A stretch of 60,676 nucleotides of DNA from NCBI GenBank assembly GCA_001778695.1, contig MFHU01000012.1:1-60676 (forward strand), in the 5' to 3' direction. Source of the stretch: Candidatus Giovannonibacteria bacterium RIFCSPHIGHO2_12_FULL_44_22. Lineage in GTDB: Bacteria; Patescibacteriota; Minisyncoccia; UBA11713; 2-01-FULL-45-33. The notes below the pieces were generated by a model, which ran no database searches, had not been told where the DNA came from, and saw only the letters and a program-made list of their open reading frames with translations. Shown in pieces: positions 53,895-60,676 of this stretch (its first letter is position 1; each line of letters opens with the position of its first letter). The translations under genes were made by a program, and so were the position numbers.

Positions 53895-53920
53895 TCCGTT
53901 AATTTAGAAATTTCAAAATT

Positions 53921-53948
53921 AAAAACCCGCTATTTACAGTGGGTTTTT
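53921..53948 (+). terminator. Intrinsic terminator
   Basis: The hairpin is AAAAACCC-gctatttacagt-GGGTTTTT. Confidence 0.55.
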
Positions 53949-54024
53949 AATTTGTTAGTATAAAAGCCAGAATTTCAGTTCTCATTTTGGAAAAAATCAA
54001 AAAAAGAAAGAGGAGGATGAAGGG

Positions 54025-54294
54025 GTGAAAATTATTGAAAAAGGAAGGCATGTGGCAAAGCCGTGGTGGAAAAAATGGCTAGGAATAAACGGAACCAAGG
54101 AGTCCGCGGAGCTTCTTTGCGAGATATGCAAAACAAAATTTAAACTTCAACAAAATCGCGATACAACATTAATTAGGGCAGATTGTTACGATGAAAATTA
54201 CAGAATCATTTTCTATTTTATCCGCTGCCCGCATTGCACGCACATCAACAAATATGCCCGAGAGGCAGTTGAATCGGAAAACGAAATCGCTTAA
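54025..54294 (+). CDS. Small zinc-ribbon-like protein (89 aa)
   Basis: The start is GTG with an AGGAGGA SD. Cysteine pairs are CEIC...CPHC. Confidence 0.35.
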   Translation: MKIIEKGRHVAKPWWKKWLGINGTKESAELLCEICKTKFKLQQNRDTTLIRADCYDENYRIIFYFIRCPHCTHINKYAREAVESENEIA

Positions 54295-54301
54295 TTCTCC
54301 C

Positions 54302-54326
54302 AGCGGCCCAAATGGCCGCTTTTTTG
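54302..54326 (+). terminator. Intrinsic terminator
   Basis: The hairpin is AGCGGCC-caaat-GGCCGCT followed by T6. Confidence 0.65.
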
Positions 54327-54381
54327 TTTGTTTTACTCCAATAACTCAACGGCCGTCAAGACATTAGAGTAATTGTTTAAA

Positions 54382-54411
54382 TTTGACACGCGGTTTTTGA
54401 TTTGCTATGAA
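54382..54411 (+). promoter_or_regulatory. Cassette A promoter (near-consensus sigma-70 type)
   Basis: It has TTGACA (54382..54387), a 17-nt spacer and TATGAAT (54405..54411). The same element recurs at 56009..56038. Confidence 0.65.
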
Positions 54412-54426
54412 TGTTAATAGAGAAAA

Positions 54427-54496
54427 ACATAGTAGCTTATTCGCTAAGAATCCTTGCGCCGCAGATGATCGGGACTAAGACACATGCCGAAGGTGA
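54427..54496 (+). other. Cassette A leader segment homologous to 23S rRNA (counterpart of 58531..58598 in this window)
   Basis: In my manual alignment, GCGCCGCAGATGATCGGGACTAAGACACATGCCGAAGGTGAG matches 23S GCGCCGAAAATTATCGGGGCTAAGCAGAGTACCGAAGGTGAG at 32 of 42 positions. Weaker similarity extends about 28 nt further upstream. Confidence 0.7.
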
Positions 54497-54497
54497 G

Positions 54498-54518
54498 GAA
54501 TTGGTGCTTGAATTTTGG
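54498..54518 (+). repeat. Cassette A closing stem, 5' arm
   Basis: AATTGGTGCTTGAATTTTGGA is complementary to 55579..55599 over 21 bp, with one U-G pair. Confidence 0.8.
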
Positions 54519-54551
54519 AAAAAATAAAAAATTAGTTCATTGGAGGTGAAT

Positions 54552-54785
54552 ATGGCTCACAGAGATGATCTGGATAGAATCGAACAAGCAGTGCACAATG
54601 AGATCTTTTTCGAAGTGGTCTACAAGGAAATCGAGAAAAGAGGCGTGAACAGAAAAGATATACCGCAACACATTCATGTAAAACTTTTCAGAGAAGTGAA
54701 AGAGGTAACGAGAAGTCTGTCGGAAGAATTGCAATCGGCAATCTTTGAGATGACCAGAACGGGTGTAATGAAAGATTTTCCCTGA
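54552..54785 (+). CDS. Small ORF A1 (77 aa), unknown function
   Basis: A GGAGGTG SD lies 5 nt upstream of the ATG. The protein is helical and charged. Confidence 0.5.
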   Translation: MAHRDDLDRIEQAVHNEIFFEVVYKEIEKRGVNRKDIPQHIHVKLFREVKEVTRSLSEELQSAIFEMTRTGVMKDFP

Positions 54786-54802
54786 ACGAAAGGAGAACGG
54801 TC

Positions 54803-55108
54803 ATGGCGAAGAATAAAAAGAAATCTCGGAAATCGTTGGAAGGACTTTTTGCGGTCGCGGTTGCGAGATCTGGTGCGAGATCAAAAACGAAGAGAGTCGT
54901 AGACACTCAAAGTTTGATTCTCGCCAATGAAGATTTTGCAAAAGCTCTTGAAAGAGGCGAGAAGTGGGCCGTGGATCACTTACACAAAAGCGAAGAGTTG
55001 AACAACGGCAATTCGTGTGCCTTCGAACGAAAGTTCGATGGAGAGAAGCGACGCTGGTGTTCAAAATGTCCATTCCCTGATGGTTGCGTCATGTGTAATC
55101 TTAATTAA
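54803..55108 (+). CDS. Small ORF A2 (101 aa), basic N-terminus and C-terminal CxxC-x5-CxxC zinc knuckle
   Basis: It is preceded by the conserved AACGAAAGGAGAACGGTC cassette. It starts MAKNKKKSRKS and ends ...WCSKCPFPDGCVMCNLN. Confidence 0.55.
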   Translation: MAKNKKKSRKSLEGLFAVAVARSGARSKTKRVVDTQSLILANEDFAKALERGEKWAVDHLHKSEELNNGNSCAFERKFDGEKRRWCSKCPFPDGCVMCNLN

Positions 55109-55124
55109 CGAAAGGAGAACGGCC

Positions 55125-55280
55125 GTGGACAAAGAAACGGAAAAAATTTTCTATGGAGCATTGCAGCAAGTGGTTTCGAGACGGTGGGATGAAATCATGA
55201 GAAAGCGAAGGGTTCTTGCAGAAGGAGTTTGTGCGGCAATCCAACGGATGCGGGAGGAAAAAGAAAAACAACCGAAATGA
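55125..55280 (+). CDS. Small ORF A3 (51 aa), GTG start
   Basis: The same AACGAAAGGAGAACGGCC cassette lies directly upstream of the GTG at 55125. The longer ORF call from 55017 overlaps A2 in another frame. Confidence 0.4.
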   Translation: MDKETEKIFYGALQQVVSRRWDEIMRKRRVLAEGVCAAIQRMREEKEKQPK

Positions 55281-55305
55281 AAACAGTAACGAAAGGAGAA
55301 CAGTC

Positions 55306-55539
55306 ATGGGTATGAACGAATGCTATTTCCGTTTGCAACTGACAAAAAGCCTTCGCTTGGCAATCATCGAGGAACTAAACGGGAGAGGGTTTCCGGCAAA
55401 AATAGTAAATGACGAATTGGTGGTCGGCGAAGCGGAGAAGCATATAAAGTTTTCTGAAGATACCATCCAGGATGCAGTGGGATTAATAATTCAATCTACT
55501 GAACGCTTCCGTAGCGAACATGAAGATATCCGTTCCTAA
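55306..55539 (+). CDS. Small ORF A4 (77 aa), unknown function
   Basis: The AACGAAAGGAGAACAGTC cassette lies directly upstream of the ATG at 55306. Confidence 0.5.
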   Translation: MGMNECYFRLQLTKSLRLAIIEELNGRGFPAKIVNDELVVGEAEKHIKFSEDTIQDAVGLIIQSTERFRSEHEDIRS

Positions 55540-55578
55540 CTAAGAAAGGAGTAATTTGGGGAGCCTAATAAGTTCCCC

Positions 55579-55599
55579 TCCAAAATTCAAGCACCAGTT
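55579..55599 (+). repeat. Cassette A closing stem, 3' arm
   Basis: TCCAAAATTCAAGCACCAGTT is the reverse complement of the 5' arm. It is followed by TGGTAG, resembling the 23S sequence 3' of the helix-45 insertion. Confidence 0.8.
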
Positions 55600-55614
55600 G
55601 GTAGATTTTGACTC

Positions 55615-55638
55615 AAGCCCAAATATGGGCTTTTTTTT
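55615..55638 (+). terminator. Cassette A terminator
   Basis: The hairpin is AAGCCC-aaatat-GGGCTT followed by a T-run. Confidence 0.7.
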
Positions 55639-55677
55639 CACACTTTACAATATTCACAAAGGATATATGATTAAATT

Positions 55678-55980
55678 ATGGCTTTAACTAAAGAAGATCT
55701 ATCTCAAATCAGAGGATTACTTGATAACAAAATAGATGATTTTGCTAGAGTTGTGGCAAAAAGTTTTGAACAGGTGGCTACAAAAACCGACATAACCAGT
55801 TTAAAAAGCGATATCGCTAAATTAGAATTAGAAATAATGGAAATTAAAGAAAGAGTAATTTATATTGAACGAGATATTGCCGAAATTAGGAAGGGGTTGA
55901 TTTCTCGTATGGAACTTGAAGACATTTTGGCGCGGCTATCTTTGGTTGAGAAAAAATTAGGCATTGTCAGCGGAAAATAA
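55678..55980 (+). CDS. Coiled-coil protein (100 aa), unknown function
   Basis: It has heptad-like Leu/Ile/Glu/Lys periodicity throughout and lies between the two cassettes. Confidence 0.4.
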   Translation: MALTKEDLSQIRGLLDNKIDDFARVVAKSFEQVATKTDITSLKSDIAKLELEIMEIKERVIYIERDIAEIRKGLISRMELEDILARLSLVEKKLGIVSGK

Positions 55981-56008
55981 TTTGGAATATTGTTGCCACG
56001 GCTCGCTA

Positions 56009-56038
56009 TTGACGGCGGGTTTTTGATTTGCTATGAAT
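56009..56038 (+). promoter_or_regulatory. Cassette B promoter
   Basis: It has TTGACG, a 17-nt spacer (identical to cassette A except for 2 nt) and TATGAAT. Confidence 0.65.
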
Positions 56039-56053
56039 TTTAATAGAAAAAAA

Positions 56054-56123
56054 CATAGTAGCTTATTCGCTAAGAGTTTTTGCGCCGCAGATGATCGGGG
56101 CTAAATAGAGTACCGCAGGTGAG
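56054..56123 (+). other. Cassette B leader segment homologous to 23S rRNA
   Basis: GCGCCGCAGATGATCGGGGCTAAATAGAGTACCGCAGGTGAG matches the 23S segment at 36 of 42 positions by manual alignment. Confidence 0.75.
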
Positions 56124-56124
56124 G

Positions 56125-56145
56125 AATTGGTGCTTGAATTTTGGA
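56125..56145 (+). repeat. Cassette B closing stem, 5' arm
   Basis: It is identical to the cassette A 5' arm and pairs with 56837..56857 over 21 bp, with one G-U at a different position than in A. Confidence 0.8.
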
Positions 56146-56173
56146 TTAAAATTTTAGTTCTTTGGAGGTGAAT

Positions 56174-56416
56174 ATGGATAGGCTTGAAATTCAGGGAAAA
56201 ATTTTCCGCCTCGTTAATGGTTTGGTCGAAGAGCAAGGAAAGAAATGGGGGGATTTGCGTCGTGGACCGGAATTACGACTGACTATATGGGAGCTGGCAG
56301 ATGATTTAATCGAAGCTTGCGAGGAAGAAAGTTTGCCGGACAAAAAGCCGGAGGAGCAACTGGACCGTGGCCCCGAATTCTTAGCGAGAATCGAGGAGCG
56401 GGGCGGTAAATGGTAA
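56174..56416 (+). CDS. Small ORF B1 (80 aa), acidic, unknown function
   Basis: It has the same TTGGAGGTGAAT-ATG start context as A1, but the protein is unrelated to A1. Confidence 0.5.
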   Translation: MDRLEIQGKIFRLVNGLVEEQGKKWGDLRRGPELRLTIWELADDLIEACEEESLPDKKPEEQLDRGPEFLARIEERGGKW

Positions 56417-56432
56417 ACGAAAGGAGAACGTC

Positions 56433-56702
56433 ATGGCGAAGAAAATCAGAAAAACAGCGAATTGGAGAATAAGTGCAGAGGAACGAGATTGTGTAACGCA
56501 GAATCTCAGAAAGGCAGTGCATGATGTGTTCAACGCCGAGGTGAAAAACCTCAAGCTGAGGAAAGTCGATATCACAGCTTTGCAGAAACTGATGTTTGTT
56601 CAGTTTGTCGAGCGTGGAATTATTCGGCTCGTTGACGATTTCGTTTCTGTTGTAGAGATCGTTCTAAAGACAAGGAAGATATTTACTGGGGATTCCTCAT
56701 GA
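56433..56702 (+). CDS. Small ORF B2 (89 aa), unknown function
   Basis: The AACGAAAGGAGAACGTC cassette plus ATGGCGAAGAA matches the start context of A2. The remainder of the protein differs. Confidence 0.5.
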   Translation: MAKKIRKTANWRISAEERDCVTQNLRKAVHDVFNAEVKNLKLRKVDITALQKLMFVQFVERGIIRLVDDFVSVVEIVLKTRKIFTGDSS

Positions 56703-56836
56703 AAAATCACGAGTCGAATCCCCTCCAAATTTAGTTCGTTGGCCAAGCTGAGAAGAAAAGTGGAAATAATGGCGAGCTTCACGAAAACGACGAAAGGAGT
56801 ATTTGAGAAGCAGGCGGAGAGAAGCCCCTGTTTCTC

Positions 56837-56857
56837 TCCAAAATTCAAGCATCAATT
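56837..56857 (+). repeat. Cassette B closing stem, 3' arm
   Basis: TCCAAAATTCAAGCATCAATT is followed by GGTAG, as in cassette A. Confidence 0.8.
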
Positions 56858-56872
56858 GGTAGATTTTGACTC

Positions 56873-56895
56873 AAGCCCGCATAAGGGCTTTTTTC
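56873..56895 (+). terminator. Cassette B terminator
   Basis: The hairpin is AAGCCC-gcataa-GGGCTT followed by a T-run. The stem is conserved with cassette A while the loop differs. Confidence 0.7.
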
Positions 56896-56901
56896 TTTTT
56901 A

Positions 56902-56929
56902 CCCCCACACCAATGCATTGGTGTGGGGG
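56902..56929. terminator. 28-nt perfect GC-rich palindrome (second terminator or insulator) just upstream of the rRNA promoter
   Basis: CCCCCACACCAATGCATTGGTGTGGGGG is followed by TTTAT. Confidence 0.5.
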
Positions 56930-56944
56930 TTTATCCCCACCCTA

Positions 56945-56972
56945 TTGACTTCCAAAACCATGGGACTATAAT
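56945..56972 (+). promoter_or_regulatory. Candidate 23S rRNA promoter
   Basis: It has TTGACT (56945..56950), a 16-nt spacer and TATAAT (56967..56972), about 175 nt upstream of the mature 23S 5' end. Confidence 0.55.
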
Positions 56973-57411
56973 GGCATTACACAAACTATGTTAAACAAAT
57001 TCAACTTAAATAAGCCAACAAAGCGGGAACACTGTTAGGTCGTCTTAACTTGTATTCAAAATCCCGCCTACGGCGGGATTTTGAGTTCATAGCGCGTGCG
57101 AACTTTGACAAGATTAGTTAATTCGTAAGTGCATTTTCTAACAAGACGGTTATAAGGGCATATGGCGGATGGCTCGAGATAAGATGGGCGATGAAGGACG
57201 TGGCGTGCCTGCGATAAGCTTGGGGGAGGTGGCTAGCAACCTTTGATCCCAAGATTTCCGAATGGGGAAACCCCGCGCCGAGAAATCGGCGTGATCTTGC
57301 ATCTTAAATGGTGCCGGAAGCGAACCCGCTGAAGTAAAACATTTCAGTAAGCGGAGGAAAAGAAAAAAATATTTATTCCCTTAGTAGCGGCGAGCGAAAA
57401 GGGAGCAGCCC

Positions 57412-57540
57412 AGATCGTCAATGCTGCGCATTGACGCGCTGAAAACGCTGACTGGACGCTGACAGTCGCAGAATAAATTCTGCGTTAGTCTGCGTTTCTT
57501 CTGCGTAAATCGGCGCGCCACTGCGCAGCAGTGGCGAAGT
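57412..57540 (+). repeat. 129-nt structured intervening sequence, copy 1 (domain I, around the E. coli ~270 region)
   Basis: It is extra sequence relative to E. coli, between GCAGCCCAGA and the CTGGAAAGG block, and is homologous to 58597..58725. Confidence 0.75.
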
Positions 57541-57749
57541 TGTAAGTTTAATCCTGGTCTTTAATGATGGGGAGAATAAAAACATTAGCAGAACGGTCCT
57601 GGAAAGGCCGGCCAAAGAGGGTAATAGCCCCGTAAACGACAATGATTTTTTACTTTCTGGATTTTACTTGAGTACCTCGAAAAATGTATAGTTCGGGGGA
57701 ATCTGCCAGCACGAGCTGGTAAGGCTAAATACCATCTATCATCGATAGT

Positions 57750-57781
<32 letters not shown>

Positions 57782-57842
57782 GCCCGGTGAGGGCGATGAA
57801 ATAGTACCTGAAACCATATGCTTACAAAGAGTCGGAGCCCCG

Positions 57843-57956
57843 CCCCACTTTTACGATGTAATTTTTATTTGCGAAGTATTACCACGCGAGTAATCTTGCA
57901 AAGATAAAAAAGTCTGAGAGACTTTTTTATGAAATTATTGTTTTGTAAAAGTGGGG
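57843..57956 (+). other. AT-rich expansion/intervening sequence in the helix-25 region
   Basis: A 12-bp perfect closing stem (CCCCACTTTTAC / GTAAAAGTGGGG) encloses about 90 nt of AT-rich hairpins that E. coli lacks at this point. Confidence 0.65.
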
Positions 57957-58596
57957 CTGGGTGACGGCGTGCCTATTGAAGAATGAGCCAACGAGTTATC
58001 CAACACCTTTCGTCTAAGGGCACCTAGCCCGGAGGCACAGGGAAACCAAGTGTTAAAAGCGCGATTTTCTCCGACGTTACGTCGGAGAAAAAAAGATGTT
58101 GGATAGACCCGAAGCGAGATGAGCTTACCATGACCAGGGTGAACCTCGGAGAAATCCGGGGGGAGGCCCGAACCGTTTAGCCGTTCAAAACTATCGGATG
58201 AGTTGTGGTAAGGAGTGAAAAGCTAATCGAATCTCGTAATAGCTGGTTCTCTCCGAAATAGCTTTTCGGCTAGCGCCCGCCAAAAATTAGCAGGTAGAGC
58301 TACTAGATGGACTTGACAGGGAGAAATCTCGCGAGTCCAACTAAACTCCGAATGGCTAATCTATTTAGGCGGGTAGTCAGACCATGGGGGCTAAGCTCCA
58401 TCGGTCAAAAGGGAAACAGCCCAGATCTCAATCTAAGGTCCCTAAATTTCTGCTAAGTGCAAAGAAGGTGGTGAAGTTTCTTAAACAGCGAGGAGGTTGG
58501 CTTAGAAGCAGCCATCCTTTAAAGAGTGCGTAACAGCTCACTCGTCAAGAGACTTCGCGCCGAAAATTATCGGGGCTAAGCAGAGTACCGAAGGTG

Positions 58597-58725
58597 AGAT
58601 CGTCAGTGCATAGCACTGACGCGCGGAAAGCGCGGACTTGACGCAGACAGTCGCAGAAAATAATTCTGCATGTTCTGCGTTTATTCTGCGTAAATCGGCG
58701 CGCCAATACTATGCATTGGCGAGGT
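58597..58725 (+). repeat. 129-nt structured intervening sequence, copy 2 (helix-45 position)
   Basis: It is inserted after ACCGAAGGTG and before GTAGGAGAGCGTTCC. It shares the core GACAGTCGCAGAA...TTCTGCGTAAATCGGCGCGCCA with copy 1. Confidence 0.75.
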
Positions 58726-59453
58726 AGGAGAGCGTTCCAAATGCAGTGAAGCTCACGGCGCGAGCCGGGGTGGAGCGTTTGGAAGTGAGAATGTTGGCAC
58801 AAGTAACCGCAAGTTCGGTGAAATACCGTACCACCGAAAACCCAAGGTTTCCTTGGCAATGGAAATCAGCCAAGGGTTAGTCGGGCCTAAGCCAATGGCG
58901 AAAGCCGGAGGCGATGGACAGCTGGTTAATATTCCAGCACTGCGTATTGTTTTGACGGCAGGACGGAGCCTAGTATGTCGGGCGCGTTATTGGATTCGCG
59001 TTCATTGCGTAAGCGCGGGGCGGAGGAAAATCCCTGCCCAGCCCCGCCACGGCGGGGGCGCGCGAATGTTTTGAAAATTTTTGCAGCAATGCGAAAAAAT
59101 TCGGTAAAGCAGGCTTCCCAGAAAATTGTCTAAAATTATCAATACGCAACCGTACCGGAATCCGACACAGGTGGGTGGGAGGAGAACTCCCAGGTGAACG
59201 AGTGAAAGATCCCCAAGGAACTCGGCAAAAAAGCGGACGTAACTTAGGGATATGTCCTTCCCGCCAACATTAGATAATATCAAAATGAAGGCGGGACGCA
59301 GCGAAAGTACCCCTGGCGACTGTTTAACAAAAACACAGCTCCCTGCAAACTCGTAAGAGGAAGTATAGGGGGTGATGCCTGACCAATGCGAGAAGGTTAA
59401 CGCTGGCGTTCGCGTGGAGCAATCTGCGCGGGTGACTGGCCGAAGCCCTCGTC

Positions 59454-59485
<32 letters not shown>

Positions 59486-60122
59486 TCTGGAATTATTTTG
59501 AAATGATTCCGGAAGGACTAGGACTGTTATAGCGATACATATGTTAAACAAAAATAGCTGCCTCATTGTGTAGCAATACGCAATTGGTCCAAAATTACAT
59601 GGCTATATGCTGGAAACTCCGCAAGTATCCTCAAGTACTTTGTGTCCTAAACCAGGTTTGGGTCATAAAGTGAAAATCTGTGAGGTGGCGCGGACAATCA
59701 GCAGGAAACTGTAATATCTAAAGGAGGAAAAGAACATGAAAAATGACTGGGACGTACTTGTCCAAAGACGTTGGTGGATGTCTCGTGCAGACATCGACGT
59801 TCTTTACTACAAGTGGAAGACGGGACAAATTCAAGTTGGAGATGAAGAAATGCTGAGAGAGTTTCAGGCTGTTCGTTCTGAAGAAATAAAGATCGAAGCA
59901 GCCGAGATGCCAGAATCTCCAGCTGTCTTCATGTTCGGCGGAATGTTGGATGCAATGTTCGAGAAAACTCCAAATGGGCAAAAGTAGTTCAAGCCCTTCC
60001 TGTAAGGAAGGCGCAAAGAAACTCTTTGCCTCTTCCTTTAGGTATTACAGGATCCTCAGATACCATACGCCGTGCATCTCTAAGTAGATGAAGATATGGT
60101 ACTTCGCCCCAAGGAAGCGAAC
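59486..60122 (+). mobile_element. Group I intron in 23S rRNA (between CCUAAGGU and AGCGAAAUUCC, near E. coli position ~1931)
   Basis: It interrupts a universally conserved exon sequence. Four core-like elements are present: P-like TGCTGGAAA (59608..59616), Q-like AATCAGCAGG (59696..59705), R-like TCAGATACCATACG (60056..60069) and S-like AAGATATGGTAC (60091..60102). A P8-like hairpin CATCT-ctaagt-AGATG is also present. The 3' boundary is uncertain by a few nt. Confidence 0.75.
59736..59987 (+). CDS. Intron-encoded small ORF (83 aa), not a recognisable homing endonuclease
   Basis: An AAGGAGG SD lies 8 nt upstream of the ATG. The ORF sits in the loop closed by a 20-bp stem (59709..59728 with 60031..60050). 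No LAGLIDADG, GIY-YIG, HNH or His-Cys motif is visible. Confidence 0.5.
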   Translation: MKNDWDVLVQRRWWMSRADIDVLYYKWKTGQIQVGDEEMLREFQAVRSEEIKIEAAEMPESPAVFMFGGMLDAMFEKTPNGQK

Positions 60123-60676
60123 AGCGAAATTCCTTGTCTGGTGAGTTCAGACGCGCACGAAAGGTATAACGACTGGGGGACTGTCTCGGGGATTTACTCG
60201 GTGAAAATGCGATACCGGTGAAGATGCCGGTTAAGTGCAGTTAGACGAAAAGACCCCGGAAGCTTTACTGCAAGTTGTTATTGGCTTTACGTTTTTACTA
60301 CGTAGCGTAGTGGGTAGGCTTTGAAATGCCGCTCTCGGGCGGCATGGAGCCGCCAATGAAACACCCATTTTTAAAAATGTAAAATCTAACCTGTCCGGCA
60401 AAACCGGGTGGGGACAGTAGCTGCTGGGCAGTTTGTGTGGGGCGCAAGCCTCCTAAAAAGTAACGGAGGCGTTTATTAAGGTCGGCTAGCTCCGGATGGA
60501 CATCGGAGCGATAGTGCAATGGCACAAGCCGGCTTAACTGGAAGTCGGACATGACGACCAGATACGAAAGTAGAACATAGTGAACCGACCGTGGGCACTC
60601 GATGCCGCGGAAGATTAACGGATAAAAGCTACTCCGGGGATAACAGGCTAGTTCCGCCCAAGAGTCCATATCGACG

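Follow-up and report, generated by a model that had tools for sequence, protein, structure and literature searches.

Helix-45 intervening sequences (IVSs) of 23S rRNA that bear an open reading frame are known from Leptospira, Coxiella burnetii, Xanthomonas, and Brucella, where they encode the S23p protein (PF05635, 23S_rRNA_IVP), and RNase III excision has been shown for IVSs of this type (PMC4990558). An earlier, sequence-only reading of the locus described here knew of no described system like it, which was overstated given the ORF-bearing helix-45 IVSs of Leptospira, Coxiella, and others (PMC4990558). A survey of rRNA insertions in CPR bacteria, the same phylum-level group as our locus, noted short inserts other than introns at two known IVS sites, 23IS2 and 23IS4, together with "long sequences of unknown function", and annotated only ORFs with Pfam domains, namely homing endonucleases and 23S_rRNA_IVP (Tsurumaki et al. 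2024, PMC11270868). Small-ORF operons that lack Pfam domains are absent from that account, as are ectopic copies (PMC11270868). The elements that we found in Giovannonibacteria resemble the S23p IVSs in their helix 45 site, the long closing stem made by the IVS termini, the sense orientation of the ORFs, and a sporadic distribution that suggests horizontal transfer. They differ in carrying 1-4 ORFs instead of one, in encoding proteins unrelated to PF05635 (the model of the first ORF product, A1, is a two-helix hairpin as opposed to a four-helix bundle), in having ORFs under purifying selection (dN/dS of A1 and A2) that are not decaying, and in a conserved 3′ hairpin. The Shine-Dalgarno site of the Coxiella IVS is weak and lost on cleavage, whereas those of the Giovannonibacteria elements are strong and lie outside the stem. 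In the window, moreover, the elements are free-standing, each with a putative promoter and terminator of its own and with rRNA flank kept.

The stretch of DNA analysed (the window) comprises 60,676 nt of contig MFHU01000012.1 (GCA_001778695.1) from Candidatus Giovannonibacteria bacterium RIFCSPHIGHO2_12_FULL_44_22, a member of the Patescibacteriota. Upstream of its 23S gene, in a 3.2-kb stretch between a mechanosensitive-channel gene and the 23S promoter, lie two free-standing units on the plus strand, A (54383-55640) and B (56009-56895). Both contain a promoter-like region, a 64-nt 23S-like stretch, a 21-bp closing stem, small ORFs led by Shine-Dalgarno sites, and a terminator (Table 1). A repeat search aligned the promoter and leader blocks (54383-54524 and 56009-56150) at 86% over 142 nt and the 3′ blocks (55572-55636 and 56830-56894) at 89% over 65 nt, and the region from the −35 to the leader is ~91% conserved; the contents between these blocks differ. 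Unit A needs its own transcription start because the gene upstream of it ends in a terminator (54302-54320). The promoters, which had been called near-consensus, are plausible as TTGACA/TTGACG-17-TATGAA, but the −10 (TATGAA) lacks the final T and a scan for consensus promoters listed neither of them. The terminators were found by scan in both units, as the earlier reading had it. The rplJ-rplL genes are located 2 kb upstream of the units.

Table 1. Features of units A and B and of the resident 23S gene in the window.
Feature	Position	Strand	Remarks
Unit A promoter-like site	54383-54412	+	TTGACA (54383-54388), 17-nt spacer, TATGAAT (54406-54412); read from sequence
Unit A leader	54434-54497	+	from the 23S segment just 5′ of helix 45; ~80% identity to 58535-58598
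Unit A 5′ arm of closing stem	54499-54519	+	pairs with 55579-55599; same arm flanks genuine helix-45 IVSs
ORF A1	54552-54785	+	77 aa; Shine-Dalgarno GGAGGTGA; predicted two-helix hairpin
ORF A2	54803-55108	+	101 aa; basic N-terminus; C-terminal CxxC-x5-CxxC motif
ORF A3	55125-55280	+	51 aa; GTG start; preceded by junction motif AACGAAAGGAGAAC
ORF A4	55306-55539	+	77 aa; preceded by junction motif
Unit A subterminal hairpin	55558-55578	+	directly 5′ of the 3′ arm; kept in whole-transcript fold
Unit A 3′ arm and GGTAG	55579-55604	+	arm 55579-55599; GGTAG, last 5 nt of 23S identity
Unit A intrinsic terminator	55615-55640	+	terminator scan (55615-55632); inside the 3′ block common to A and B (89%)
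Unit B promoter-like site	56009-56038	+	TTGACG (56009-56014), 17-nt spacer, TATGAAT (56032-56038)
Unit B leader	56060-56123	+	from 23S; 80% identity to the 23S of the window
Unit B 5′ arm of closing stem	56125-56145	+	pairs with 56837-56857
ORF B1	56174-56416	+	80 aa
ORF B2	56433-56702	+	89 aa; basic N-terminus; preceded by junction motif
Unit B decayed third module	56716-56804	+	relic 3′-end element fused to relic 5′ UTR, then remnant junction motif
Unit B subterminal hairpin, 3′ arm, and GGTAG	56805-56862	+	hairpin 56805-56836, arm 56837-56857
Unit B intrinsic terminator	56873-56895	+	terminator scan (56873-56890)
Resident 23S segment homologous to leaders	58535-58598	+	ends at the 5′ base of helix 45
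Resident helix-45 insert	58599-58722	+	124 nt; ORF-less IVS of a type different from that of the units; paralogous to 57412-57540

The earlier reading had taken the two units for free-standing pieces of 23S with operons of ORFs at the helix-45 insertion point, and the alignments bear this out. In local alignments against the whole 23S gene both leaders picked exactly 58535-58598, with scores of 46 (A) and 63 (B) against shuffle means of 22 (sd 2.7), so that the similarity stands well above shuffled controls (z = 8.8 for A and 16.1 for B). Identity among the three copies of the 64-nt block is 80-81%. Weak 23S homology reaches upstream to ~54427, roughly the expected transcription start, and the homology stops at GGTGAG, the exact site of the helix-45 insert in the resident 23S gene, as had been claimed; in relatives without an IVS this slot measures 20-37 nt. 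A resumption of homology after the 3′ arm, reported as TTGGTAG, is not significant on its own (z = −0.7 and 1.8), but GGTAG is the true 3′ junction with 23S in genuine IVSs, which end ...AATTGGTAG/GAGAGCGTTCC. The units have 64 nt of 5′ and 5 nt of 3′ flank from 23S, and their place is upstream of the 23S gene, not inside helix 45 of a functional one.

Both units have the 21-bp closing stems that the earlier reading described. Each stem is perfect but for one G.U pair, which works only in plus-strand RNA, and is of the extended type, formed by the termini of the element, that is typical of helix-45 IVSs. MFE and centroid folds of both whole transcripts retain it. Across 12 distinct IVSs and cassettes the closing stem is conserved, its differences comprising 2 compensatory pairs and 3 G.U changes; all 12 also have a subterminal hairpin, whose stem occurs in at least 5 different sequences. 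The hairpin of unit B belongs to the type seen in L039, L048, and L055. A double-stranded processing site that flanks coding RNA also occurs in the early transcripts of phage T7, polycistronic mRNAs that are processed by RNase III with cleavage leaving a stabilizing 3′ hairpin. The stem of the window units differs from these in being inherited from an rRNA insertion and in joining both ends of the operon, and its cleavage is a prediction. The conserved 3′ hairpin is predicted to stabilize the mRNA. Among the collections searched, the complete free-standing layout with leader and both arms occurs in this species only, so that conservation of the stem in the ectopic state may reflect either selection or youth.

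Giovannonibacteria relatives have these arms, together with the 3′ hairpin, the junction motif, and homologous ORFs, inside helix 45 of 23S genes that are otherwise intact, with genuine helix-45 placement in L020, L028, L029, L039, L042, L044, L046, L054, and L055. In L020, L028, and L029 the upstream GTPase-associated-centre (GAC) region is present, the same arm follows GGTGAG, and the 23S resumes with GGTAGGAGAGCG; the same holds for 14 of 15 metagenome loci. The window units are homologous to this family of helix-45 elements, which carry 1-4 small genes, in their arms, 5′ UTR, junction motif, 3′ hairpin, and ORFs A1, A2, and B2. Judged by its sequence, the IVS of the relatives is a polycistronic mRNA for small proteins that is enclosed by a 21-bp stem and lies within a functional 23S gene. 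Synteny with the window is seen in L029, one of these relatives: it aligns with 48.7-53.9 kb and with the 23S gene, and has ~180 nt in place of the 3.2 kb that hold the units. Free-standing copies in other genomes appear to form a series of more decayed forms: L069 and L059 lack a 5′ arm and come with a TTGACA-17-TATAAT promoter of their own, L069 keeps a relic of the 3′ arm, and the copy in L061 is without arms.

Where the earlier reading counted two to four small ORFs per unit, unit B has two intact ORFs and a decayed third module, which matches IVS 3′ ends and 5′ UTRs in short stretches that come in the expected order, with weak statistical support. The extended Shine-Dalgarno motif that precedes several of the ORFs, AACGAAAGGAGAAC, occurs four times in the window, always within the units. 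In genuine IVSs of L028, L048, L054, and L055 the first ORF is a homologue of A1; the dN/dS of A1 is 0.04-0.08. The AlphaFold2 model of A1 (pLDDT 79) is a two-helix hairpin with no match in the PDB, and A1 matched no family in Pfam, NCBIfam, PADLOC, or PHROG. A2 is 64% identical to the sole ORF of the helix-45 IVS in L029 (dN/dS = 0.22), and its C-terminal motif recurs in 61-66 aa proteins on phage-like contigs. B2 is weakly homologous to what is the second ORF in the genuine L020 IVS (30% over 71 aa, E = 1e-3), and the homologue search found none for A3, A4, and B1. None of the six ORFs matched a Pfam family, PF05635 (S23p / 23S_rRNA_IVP) included, at E ≤ 1. The unit ORFs likewise had no match to ribosomal-protein families in Pfam or NCBIfam, no homing endonuclease domain (LAGLIDADG, GIY-YIG), and no significant match to defence or toxin-antitoxin models in PADLOC, Pfam, NCBIfam, or PHROG, although a new type is still possible. 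The Intron_gpI covariance model gave no match in 54200-57100 even at E ≤ 10. Several second-position ORFs encode basic N-termini; from these and the Cys4 knuckle of A2 we can only guess that the small proteins may bind nucleic acid or the ribosome.

We consider it likely that both units are copies of an ORF-bearing helix-45 IVS of Giovannonibacteria 23S rRNA and that, at their ectopic sites, they are transcribed independently. An orphaned or domesticated IVS was one of three possibilities offered by the earlier reading, and the homologues of A1, A2, and B2 with the same arms inside genuine helix 45 support it. Each unit would be transcribed from a sigma-70-like promoter to its own intrinsic terminator, and the arms would pair across 0.7-1.1 kb. 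RNase III may then cut the stem as it does in the pre-23S rRNA of other bacteria, removing the rRNA-like leader and the terminator. In the released mRNA the subterminal hairpin would protect the 3′ end, the Shine-Dalgarno sites, being outside the stem, would be intact after cleavage, and A1-A4, B1, and B2 would be translated. The rRNA-like leader would be a passenger from the donor 23S and not a functional mimic, and the units would have swapped their contents with the 23S-IVS alleles of other lineages through homologous recombination.

The leaders carry traces of such exchange. The last 46 nt of leader A are identical (46/46) to the 23S of other Giovannonibacteria (L020, L028, L039, L044, and L047), and the 23S nearest to leader B is that of L017 (57/64 overall, 42/46 in the 3′ part). 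Because each leader is closer to the 23S of other lineages than to the resident 23S, recombination with foreign alleles is indicated. The promoter and the 5′ 18 nt of the leaders are common to A and B (17/18), the next 46 nt and the IVS body of each unit match two different 23S lineages, and the differences between A and B cluster in the lineage-specific block. The mosaic leaders show that recombination with 23S alleles took place in the past, but as capture. Different sets of ORFs have conserved arms and Shine-Dalgarno junctions, and in L029, L046, and L055 the junction motif replaces the Shine-Dalgarno site of the first ORF. The same observations would fit units that act as landing pads or donors, with leader and arms serving as homology to swap IVS contents between helix 45 (resident or in incoming DNA) and ectopic sites, which we think unlikely. 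Transfer into the resident gene is improbable now because no more than 5 nt of 23S are left on the 3′ side of the stem, the match to that gene is only ~80% over 64 nt, and its helix 45 is already taken up by an unrelated IVS; donor cassettes, as the earlier reading proposed them, are not supported in that form. The units have no associated recombinase, and past recombination does not make exchange their function.

It is less probable still that part of the 23S gene was duplicated and that the units are its dead remains, with neither transcription nor translation. The imperfect −10, the decayed module in unit B, and a Coxiella IVS ORF that is thought to be silent (PMC4990558) point that way. 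Against this, all six ORFs (A1-A4, B1, and B2) are intact with strong Shine-Dalgarno sites outside the stem, A1 has a dN/dS of 0.08 even when compared with the free-standing copy in L061, which is 91% identical, the stems are perfect apart from G.U pairs, and the promoter and terminator blocks are conserved between units whose contents differ.

The operon leaders of ribosomal proteins L20, L10, L1, and S15 mimic the folded binding site of the protein that they control. A mimic of this kind, which would regulate the small proteins by recruiting a processing factor or a protein that binds 23S, was another suggestion of the earlier reading; both units do retain 64 nt of rRNA sequence right after the presumed transcription start, and the position of rplJ-rplL is probably a coincidence. 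We regard a mimic as very improbable. The leader is directly homologous to a single strand, comprising only the 3′ strands of 23S helices with their partner strands absent, and the ORFs are not those of ribosomal proteins. Positions invariant in 23S are changed: unit B has CCGCAGG where 45/45 real 23S sequences have CCGAAGG, and in both units AGCTTATTCG replaces AGCTCACTCG. Free-standing relatives exist without the leader, and cleavage of the stem would sever it.

Although rRNA regions and repeats mis-assemble easily and the related contig L060 may be a mis-assembly path, the chance that the layout is an assembly chimera of 23S reads, a concern of the earlier reading, is negligible because five independent assemblies from different samples and assemblers, with contigs up to 133 kb, reproduce it exactly, and the leaders differ from the resident 23S at ~20% of positions. 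The region 53900-57200 is 100% identical in L063-L065 and 99.97% identical in L066, and L068 matches from 54383, the start of its contig.

With the units read as ectopic IVS copies, a family of conserved small proteins would be encoded within rRNA and would sometimes escape from it. ORFs in rRNA IVSs have so far been treated as rare, single, and probably silent, whereas the helix-45 inserts described here are operons of up to four small genes with strong translation signals, a 3′ hairpin, and, for A1 and A2, clear purifying selection. Some pre-rRNA of these ultra-small bacteria is thus predicted to double as mRNA. Where gene callers mask rRNA genes, these proteins are systematically overlooked; among 1.8 billion representative proteins, an exhaustive profile search gave only four matches. 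The same genes are also found at ordinary sites in the chromosome, where their rRNA features have been lost to varying extents, and the intact and decayed forms together provide a concrete system for studying the origin, movement, and domestication of rRNA insertions. More tentatively, the helix-45 IVS may be a modular cassette platform, in which small-protein genes with a shared Shine-Dalgarno junction are shuffled among IVSs, pass from lineage to lineage by recombination in the flanking rRNA, and are picked up by ectopic, promoter-driven "pads" that retain both the stem and the rRNA homology. If so, rRNA would be both vehicle and high-expression site for mobile accessory proteins, possibly ribosome-associated or phage-related.

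Units A and B have the same layout and share both ends, a 5′ block (table) and a 65-nt 3′ block with 89% identity. A 64-nt stretch is present in three copies, one in each unit and one in the resident 23S gene at 58535-58598, with 80-81% identity. When each leader (the rRNA-like 5′ part of a unit) was aligned to the entire 23S gene it fell on 58535-58598, with z = 8.8 (A) and 16.1 (B) against dinucleotide shuffles, and the similarity described in the sequence-only reading thus withstands shuffled controls. The homology ends at GGTGAG, the 5′ base of helix 45, confirming that it stops where the resident gene carries its insert (58599-58722; 124 nt, as compared to 20-37 nt in insert-free relatives). 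The reported 3′ return of homology, TTGGTAG, is not significant by itself and was dropped as an independent homology arm. A 21-bp stem joins the two ends of each unit and contains a single G.U pair that works only in + strand RNA. Both intrinsic terminators were found by scan. The proposed promoters (TTGACA or TTGACG, 17 nt, TATGAA) were not listed by the scan because the −10 element lacks the final T; they are plausible and conserved between A and B, but the earlier description of them as near-consensus does not hold. An origin of the promoter from rRNA sequence was considered and dropped, as there is no convincing 23S similarity upstream of 54427 (∼38% identity in the alignment). All six ORFs, A1-A4 and B1-B2 (51-101 aa), have a strong Shine-Dalgarno site, and the motif AACGAAAGGAGAAC precedes four of them and occurs nowhere else in the 60-kb window. 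At a permissive threshold, an Rfam scan of the units returned chance-level matches only, with no group I or other intron match and no LSU match; the rRNA fragment falls short of the length that the model requires.

Coordinates of features in the window and in loci of other assemblies (L059-L074)
Feature	Location	Remarks
23S rRNA gene, bacterial	57142-60676	3′ end cut off by window edge
5′ block common to the units	54383-54524 and 56009-56150	142 nt, 86% identity
Relic 3′-end element TCCCCTCCAAATTT fused directly to relic 5′ UTR AAATTTAGTTCGTTGG	56716-56804 (unit B)	short, weakly supported matches
89-aa protein gene	54025-54294	two CxxC pairs; own terminator
100-aa coiled-coil protein gene	55678-55980	between the units; AT-rich (31-35% GC)
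83-aa ORF in 637-nt insertion of 23S	59736-59987	strong Shine-Dalgarno site
Free-standing A1-type operons	L059 3494-3926, L060 1-786, L069 690-1330	perfect TTGACA-17-TATAAT promoter
A2-type Cys4 motif proteins, 61-66 aa	L072 6001-6201, L073 745-945, L074 2251-2451	∼70% identity over 27 aa

A scan for the 5′ flank of helix 45, with one genome per species, yielded 38 Patescibacteria loci, most of which have a plain helix 45 or a short insert without an ORF. Five Giovannonibacteria loci (L017, L020, L028, L029 and L033) are genuine 23S genes, with the GTPase-associated-centre region upstream and Rfam LSU matches spanning model positions 1 to 1289-2482, in which GGTGAG is followed by the arm GAATT(A/G)GTGCTTGAATTTTGGA, an A/T-rich 5′ UTR, a Shine-Dalgarno site and ATG. 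The arm is the same as in the window units. In sufficiently long loci a hairpin and then the 3′ arm, ...CCAAAATTCAAGCACCAATTGGTAG, close the insert, and the 23S resumes with GAGAGCGTTCC. Homologues of unit ORFs inside a genuine helix 45, the relatives that the sequence-only reading had proposed to look for, were found for A1 (54-78% identity to the first ORF of the intervening sequence (IVS) in L028, L054, L048 and L055), A2 (64% identity to the sole ORF of the L029 IVS) and B2 (a distant relative of the second ORF in L020). L029 also shares synteny with the window, at 70-75% DNA identity across 48.7-53.9 kb and at 84-97% across the 23S gene, and the distance from the mechanosensitive-channel gene to the 23S promoter is ∼180 nt in L029 as compared to 3.2 kb in the window. 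Together, the homologous inserts and this synteny argue that units A and B are relocated copies of an ORF-bearing helix-45 IVS. Fourteen of 15 loci from a metagenome scan for the arm lie inside genuine 23S genes, the remaining one is a chance match, and none is a free-standing copy. The small genes at both sides of unit A, which lie in the stretch that L029 lacks, had no homologues in the fetched loci. In one MAG (GCA_023266875.1), the 23S flank is common to two contigs, L017 and L033/L054, but the IVSs behind it differ: one begins MSFADEQL... and the other has four ORFs, of which the first is an A1 homologue. This would mean either a second 23S copy or strains that vary in IVS content.

The comparison of the family covered 12 distinct elements, of which ten are genuine IVSs and two are the window units. 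The 21-bp stem is kept in all of them, with two compensatory double changes (T-A to C-G in L055; G-C to A-T in L020 and L054) and three G.U changes. A hairpin abuts the 3′ arm in 12/12 elements, and since at least five unrelated sequences make up its stem it is the structure that is conserved, not the sequence. When both unit transcripts were folded whole, the long-range stem, hairpin and terminator were all retained in the minimum-free-energy and centroid structures. The ORFs are arranged as modules, with at least six families in varied combinations and one to four ORFs per element. In the IVSs of L029, L046 and L055 the inter-ORF junction motif (GAAAGGAGAAC...) stands before the first ORF, spliced to the common 5′ UTR in place of the usual TTGGAGGTGAAT, which suggests that modules are gained and lost by recombination at Shine-Dalgarno junctions. 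In unit B, the relic 3′-end element and 5′ UTR (table) precede a dead ORF and what is left of a junction motif, an arrangement that might reflect the head-to-tail fusion of two IVS units in which the internal arms were lost.

The dN/dS values, 0.04-0.08 for non-saturated A1 pairs and 0.22 for A2 against L029, indicate that the IVS and unit genes are real. Pfam, PHROGs, NCBIfam and PADLOC scans of the six unit ORFs and four related IVS ORFs gave nothing significant, and an all-against-all comparison of the small ORFs in the window detected no paralogy. A1 is predicted to form a two-helix hairpin (pLDDT 79) without a fold match in the PDB; the A2 model (pLDDT 49) was too poor for a structure search. 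The C-terminal motif of A2, FDG...WCxxCPFPxGCVxC, recurs in other small proteins (table) whose adjoining genes match phage families (phrog_19610, phrog_7313 and a deoxyribonucleotidase), which hints at a link between IVS genes and phages. Neither the arm or junction nor members of the A1 and A2 families were detected in scans of viral contigs. Word-indexed protein searches recovered just 1, 6 and 5 relatives and an exhaustive HMMER search with the A1 profile recovered 4 proteins. Very large protein collections thus contain almost no proteins encoded in rRNA inserts, we suspect because gene callers skip or mask rRNA genes; if ORFs were called anew within the rRNA genes of Patescibacteria, many more such families would probably come to light.

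The leaders have a composite ancestry. Over 64 nt, leader A is closest to the 23S genes of L047, L020, L028, L039 and L044 (58-59/64, with 46/46 over the last 46 nt) and leader B to that of L017 (57/64), and the resident 23S is absent from the six best matches of either. The promoter and first 18 leader nucleotides are common to A and B (17/18) and carry changes that were not found in real 23S genes, and leader B has CCGCAGG where 45/45 real 23S sequences have CCGAAGG. We infer that one ancestral ectopic unit was duplicated and that, in at least one copy, recombination with a 23S-IVS allele from another lineage subsequently replaced the rRNA-proximal part and the IVS body. Mosaic leaders would also be compatible with units that serve as a recombination landing pad or donor, a reading we regard as possible if rather improbable, as the units lack 3′ homology and show no sign of such a function. 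That the units are dead remnants is unlikely given the intact ORFs, intact stems and purifying selection. On sequence grounds the leaders are best described as mosaic passengers free of rRNA-like constraint, which counts against the leader as an rRNA mimic and makes that proposal very doubtful. An assembly chimera is excluded for practical purposes: five contigs that differ in sample and assembler (up to 133 kb long; ENA MEGAHIT, JGI, ANAN16 scaffolds), whose sample names point to the Rifle aquifer, reproduce the region, with matches over 53900-57200 of 100% in L063-L065 and 99.97% in L066 and a match in L068 from 54383, its own contig start, and the exact A1 protein is recorded in 49 blocks of the assembly collection.

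As relocated IVS copies, the units would each be transcribed from their own promoter to their own terminator, and the arms would then pair. By analogy with helix-45 IVSs elsewhere, for which RNase III cleavage of the stem has been demonstrated (PMC4990558), RNase III would cut the closing stem and the leader and terminator would be discarded, while the subterminal hairpin would protect the 3′ end of the mRNA. The Shine-Dalgarno sites lie outside the stem, unlike in the Coxiella IVS, and the mRNA would therefore stay translatable after the cut. The same RNA inside a real 23S would be produced at rRNA rates; ectopic copies would decouple it from rRNA synthesis and keep the genes after another IVS took helix 45. 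No RNase III was found among ten further ORFs of the window that were scanned. Among known systems, the nearest are the helix-45 IVSs that encode S23p in Leptospira, Coxiella and others (PMC4990558). Location inside the 23S gene, the defining feature of an IVS, is found in the homologous elements and not in units A and B. In a 2024 survey of insertions in CPR rRNA, ORFs were recorded only where Pfam annotated them, and mention was made of long inserts of unknown function (PMC11270868). We consider two features to be probably new, having found no description of them in literature searches: operons of several small-protein genes within a helix-45 IVS that have expression signals and are under purifying selection, and free-standing copies that retain the rRNA flank and processing stem.

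A1 homologues are also found outside rRNA, in L059, L069 and L061. The operons of L059 (downstream of gyrA) and L069 have no 5′ arm, and in L069 the subterminal hairpin remains, followed by 16 nt of the 3′ arm and a separate terminator; the string CACATACAGAAAGT after the promoter may be a decayed 23S flank, a weak match. L061 has a 91%-identical A1 and the usual partner ORF with no arms at all, behind a gene that we read as gltX from its translated C-terminus alone. Taken together, the forms resemble a series of steps, from a position within rRNA, through a free-standing copy that keeps flank and stem (the window) and one that has lost the stem, to an ordinary small operon. L060 begins with the perfect promoter of L059 and L069 (table) but reads on across the 3′ arm and into 23S. 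The possibility that L060 represents a split of the 23S gene at helix 45 was set aside, as its 3′ 600 nt are identical to L028 and may be an assembly path through a repeat.

In the window lineage the helix-45 slot is now occupied by a different, ORF-less IVS. The resident 23S has two paralogous ORF-less inserts, 57412-57540 and 58597-58725 (84-85% identity over 62 and 52 nt); the latter is in helix 45 and the former, in the 5′ part of the gene, is assumed to be at helix 25. A Vogelbacteria 23S (L006) has a similar insert in helix 45. This family is unrelated to the ORF-bearing one and apparently took over the helix-45 slot. Relative to L028, the resident 23S also has a 637-nt insertion (59486-60122) after ...CGGTCCTAAGGT (∼E. 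coli position 1931), whose match to a group I intron is only weak (17.3 bits, E = 0.07). Its ORF has no family match and is not a LAGLIDADG or GIY-YIG endonuclease; it may be another unannotated small protein inside rRNA.
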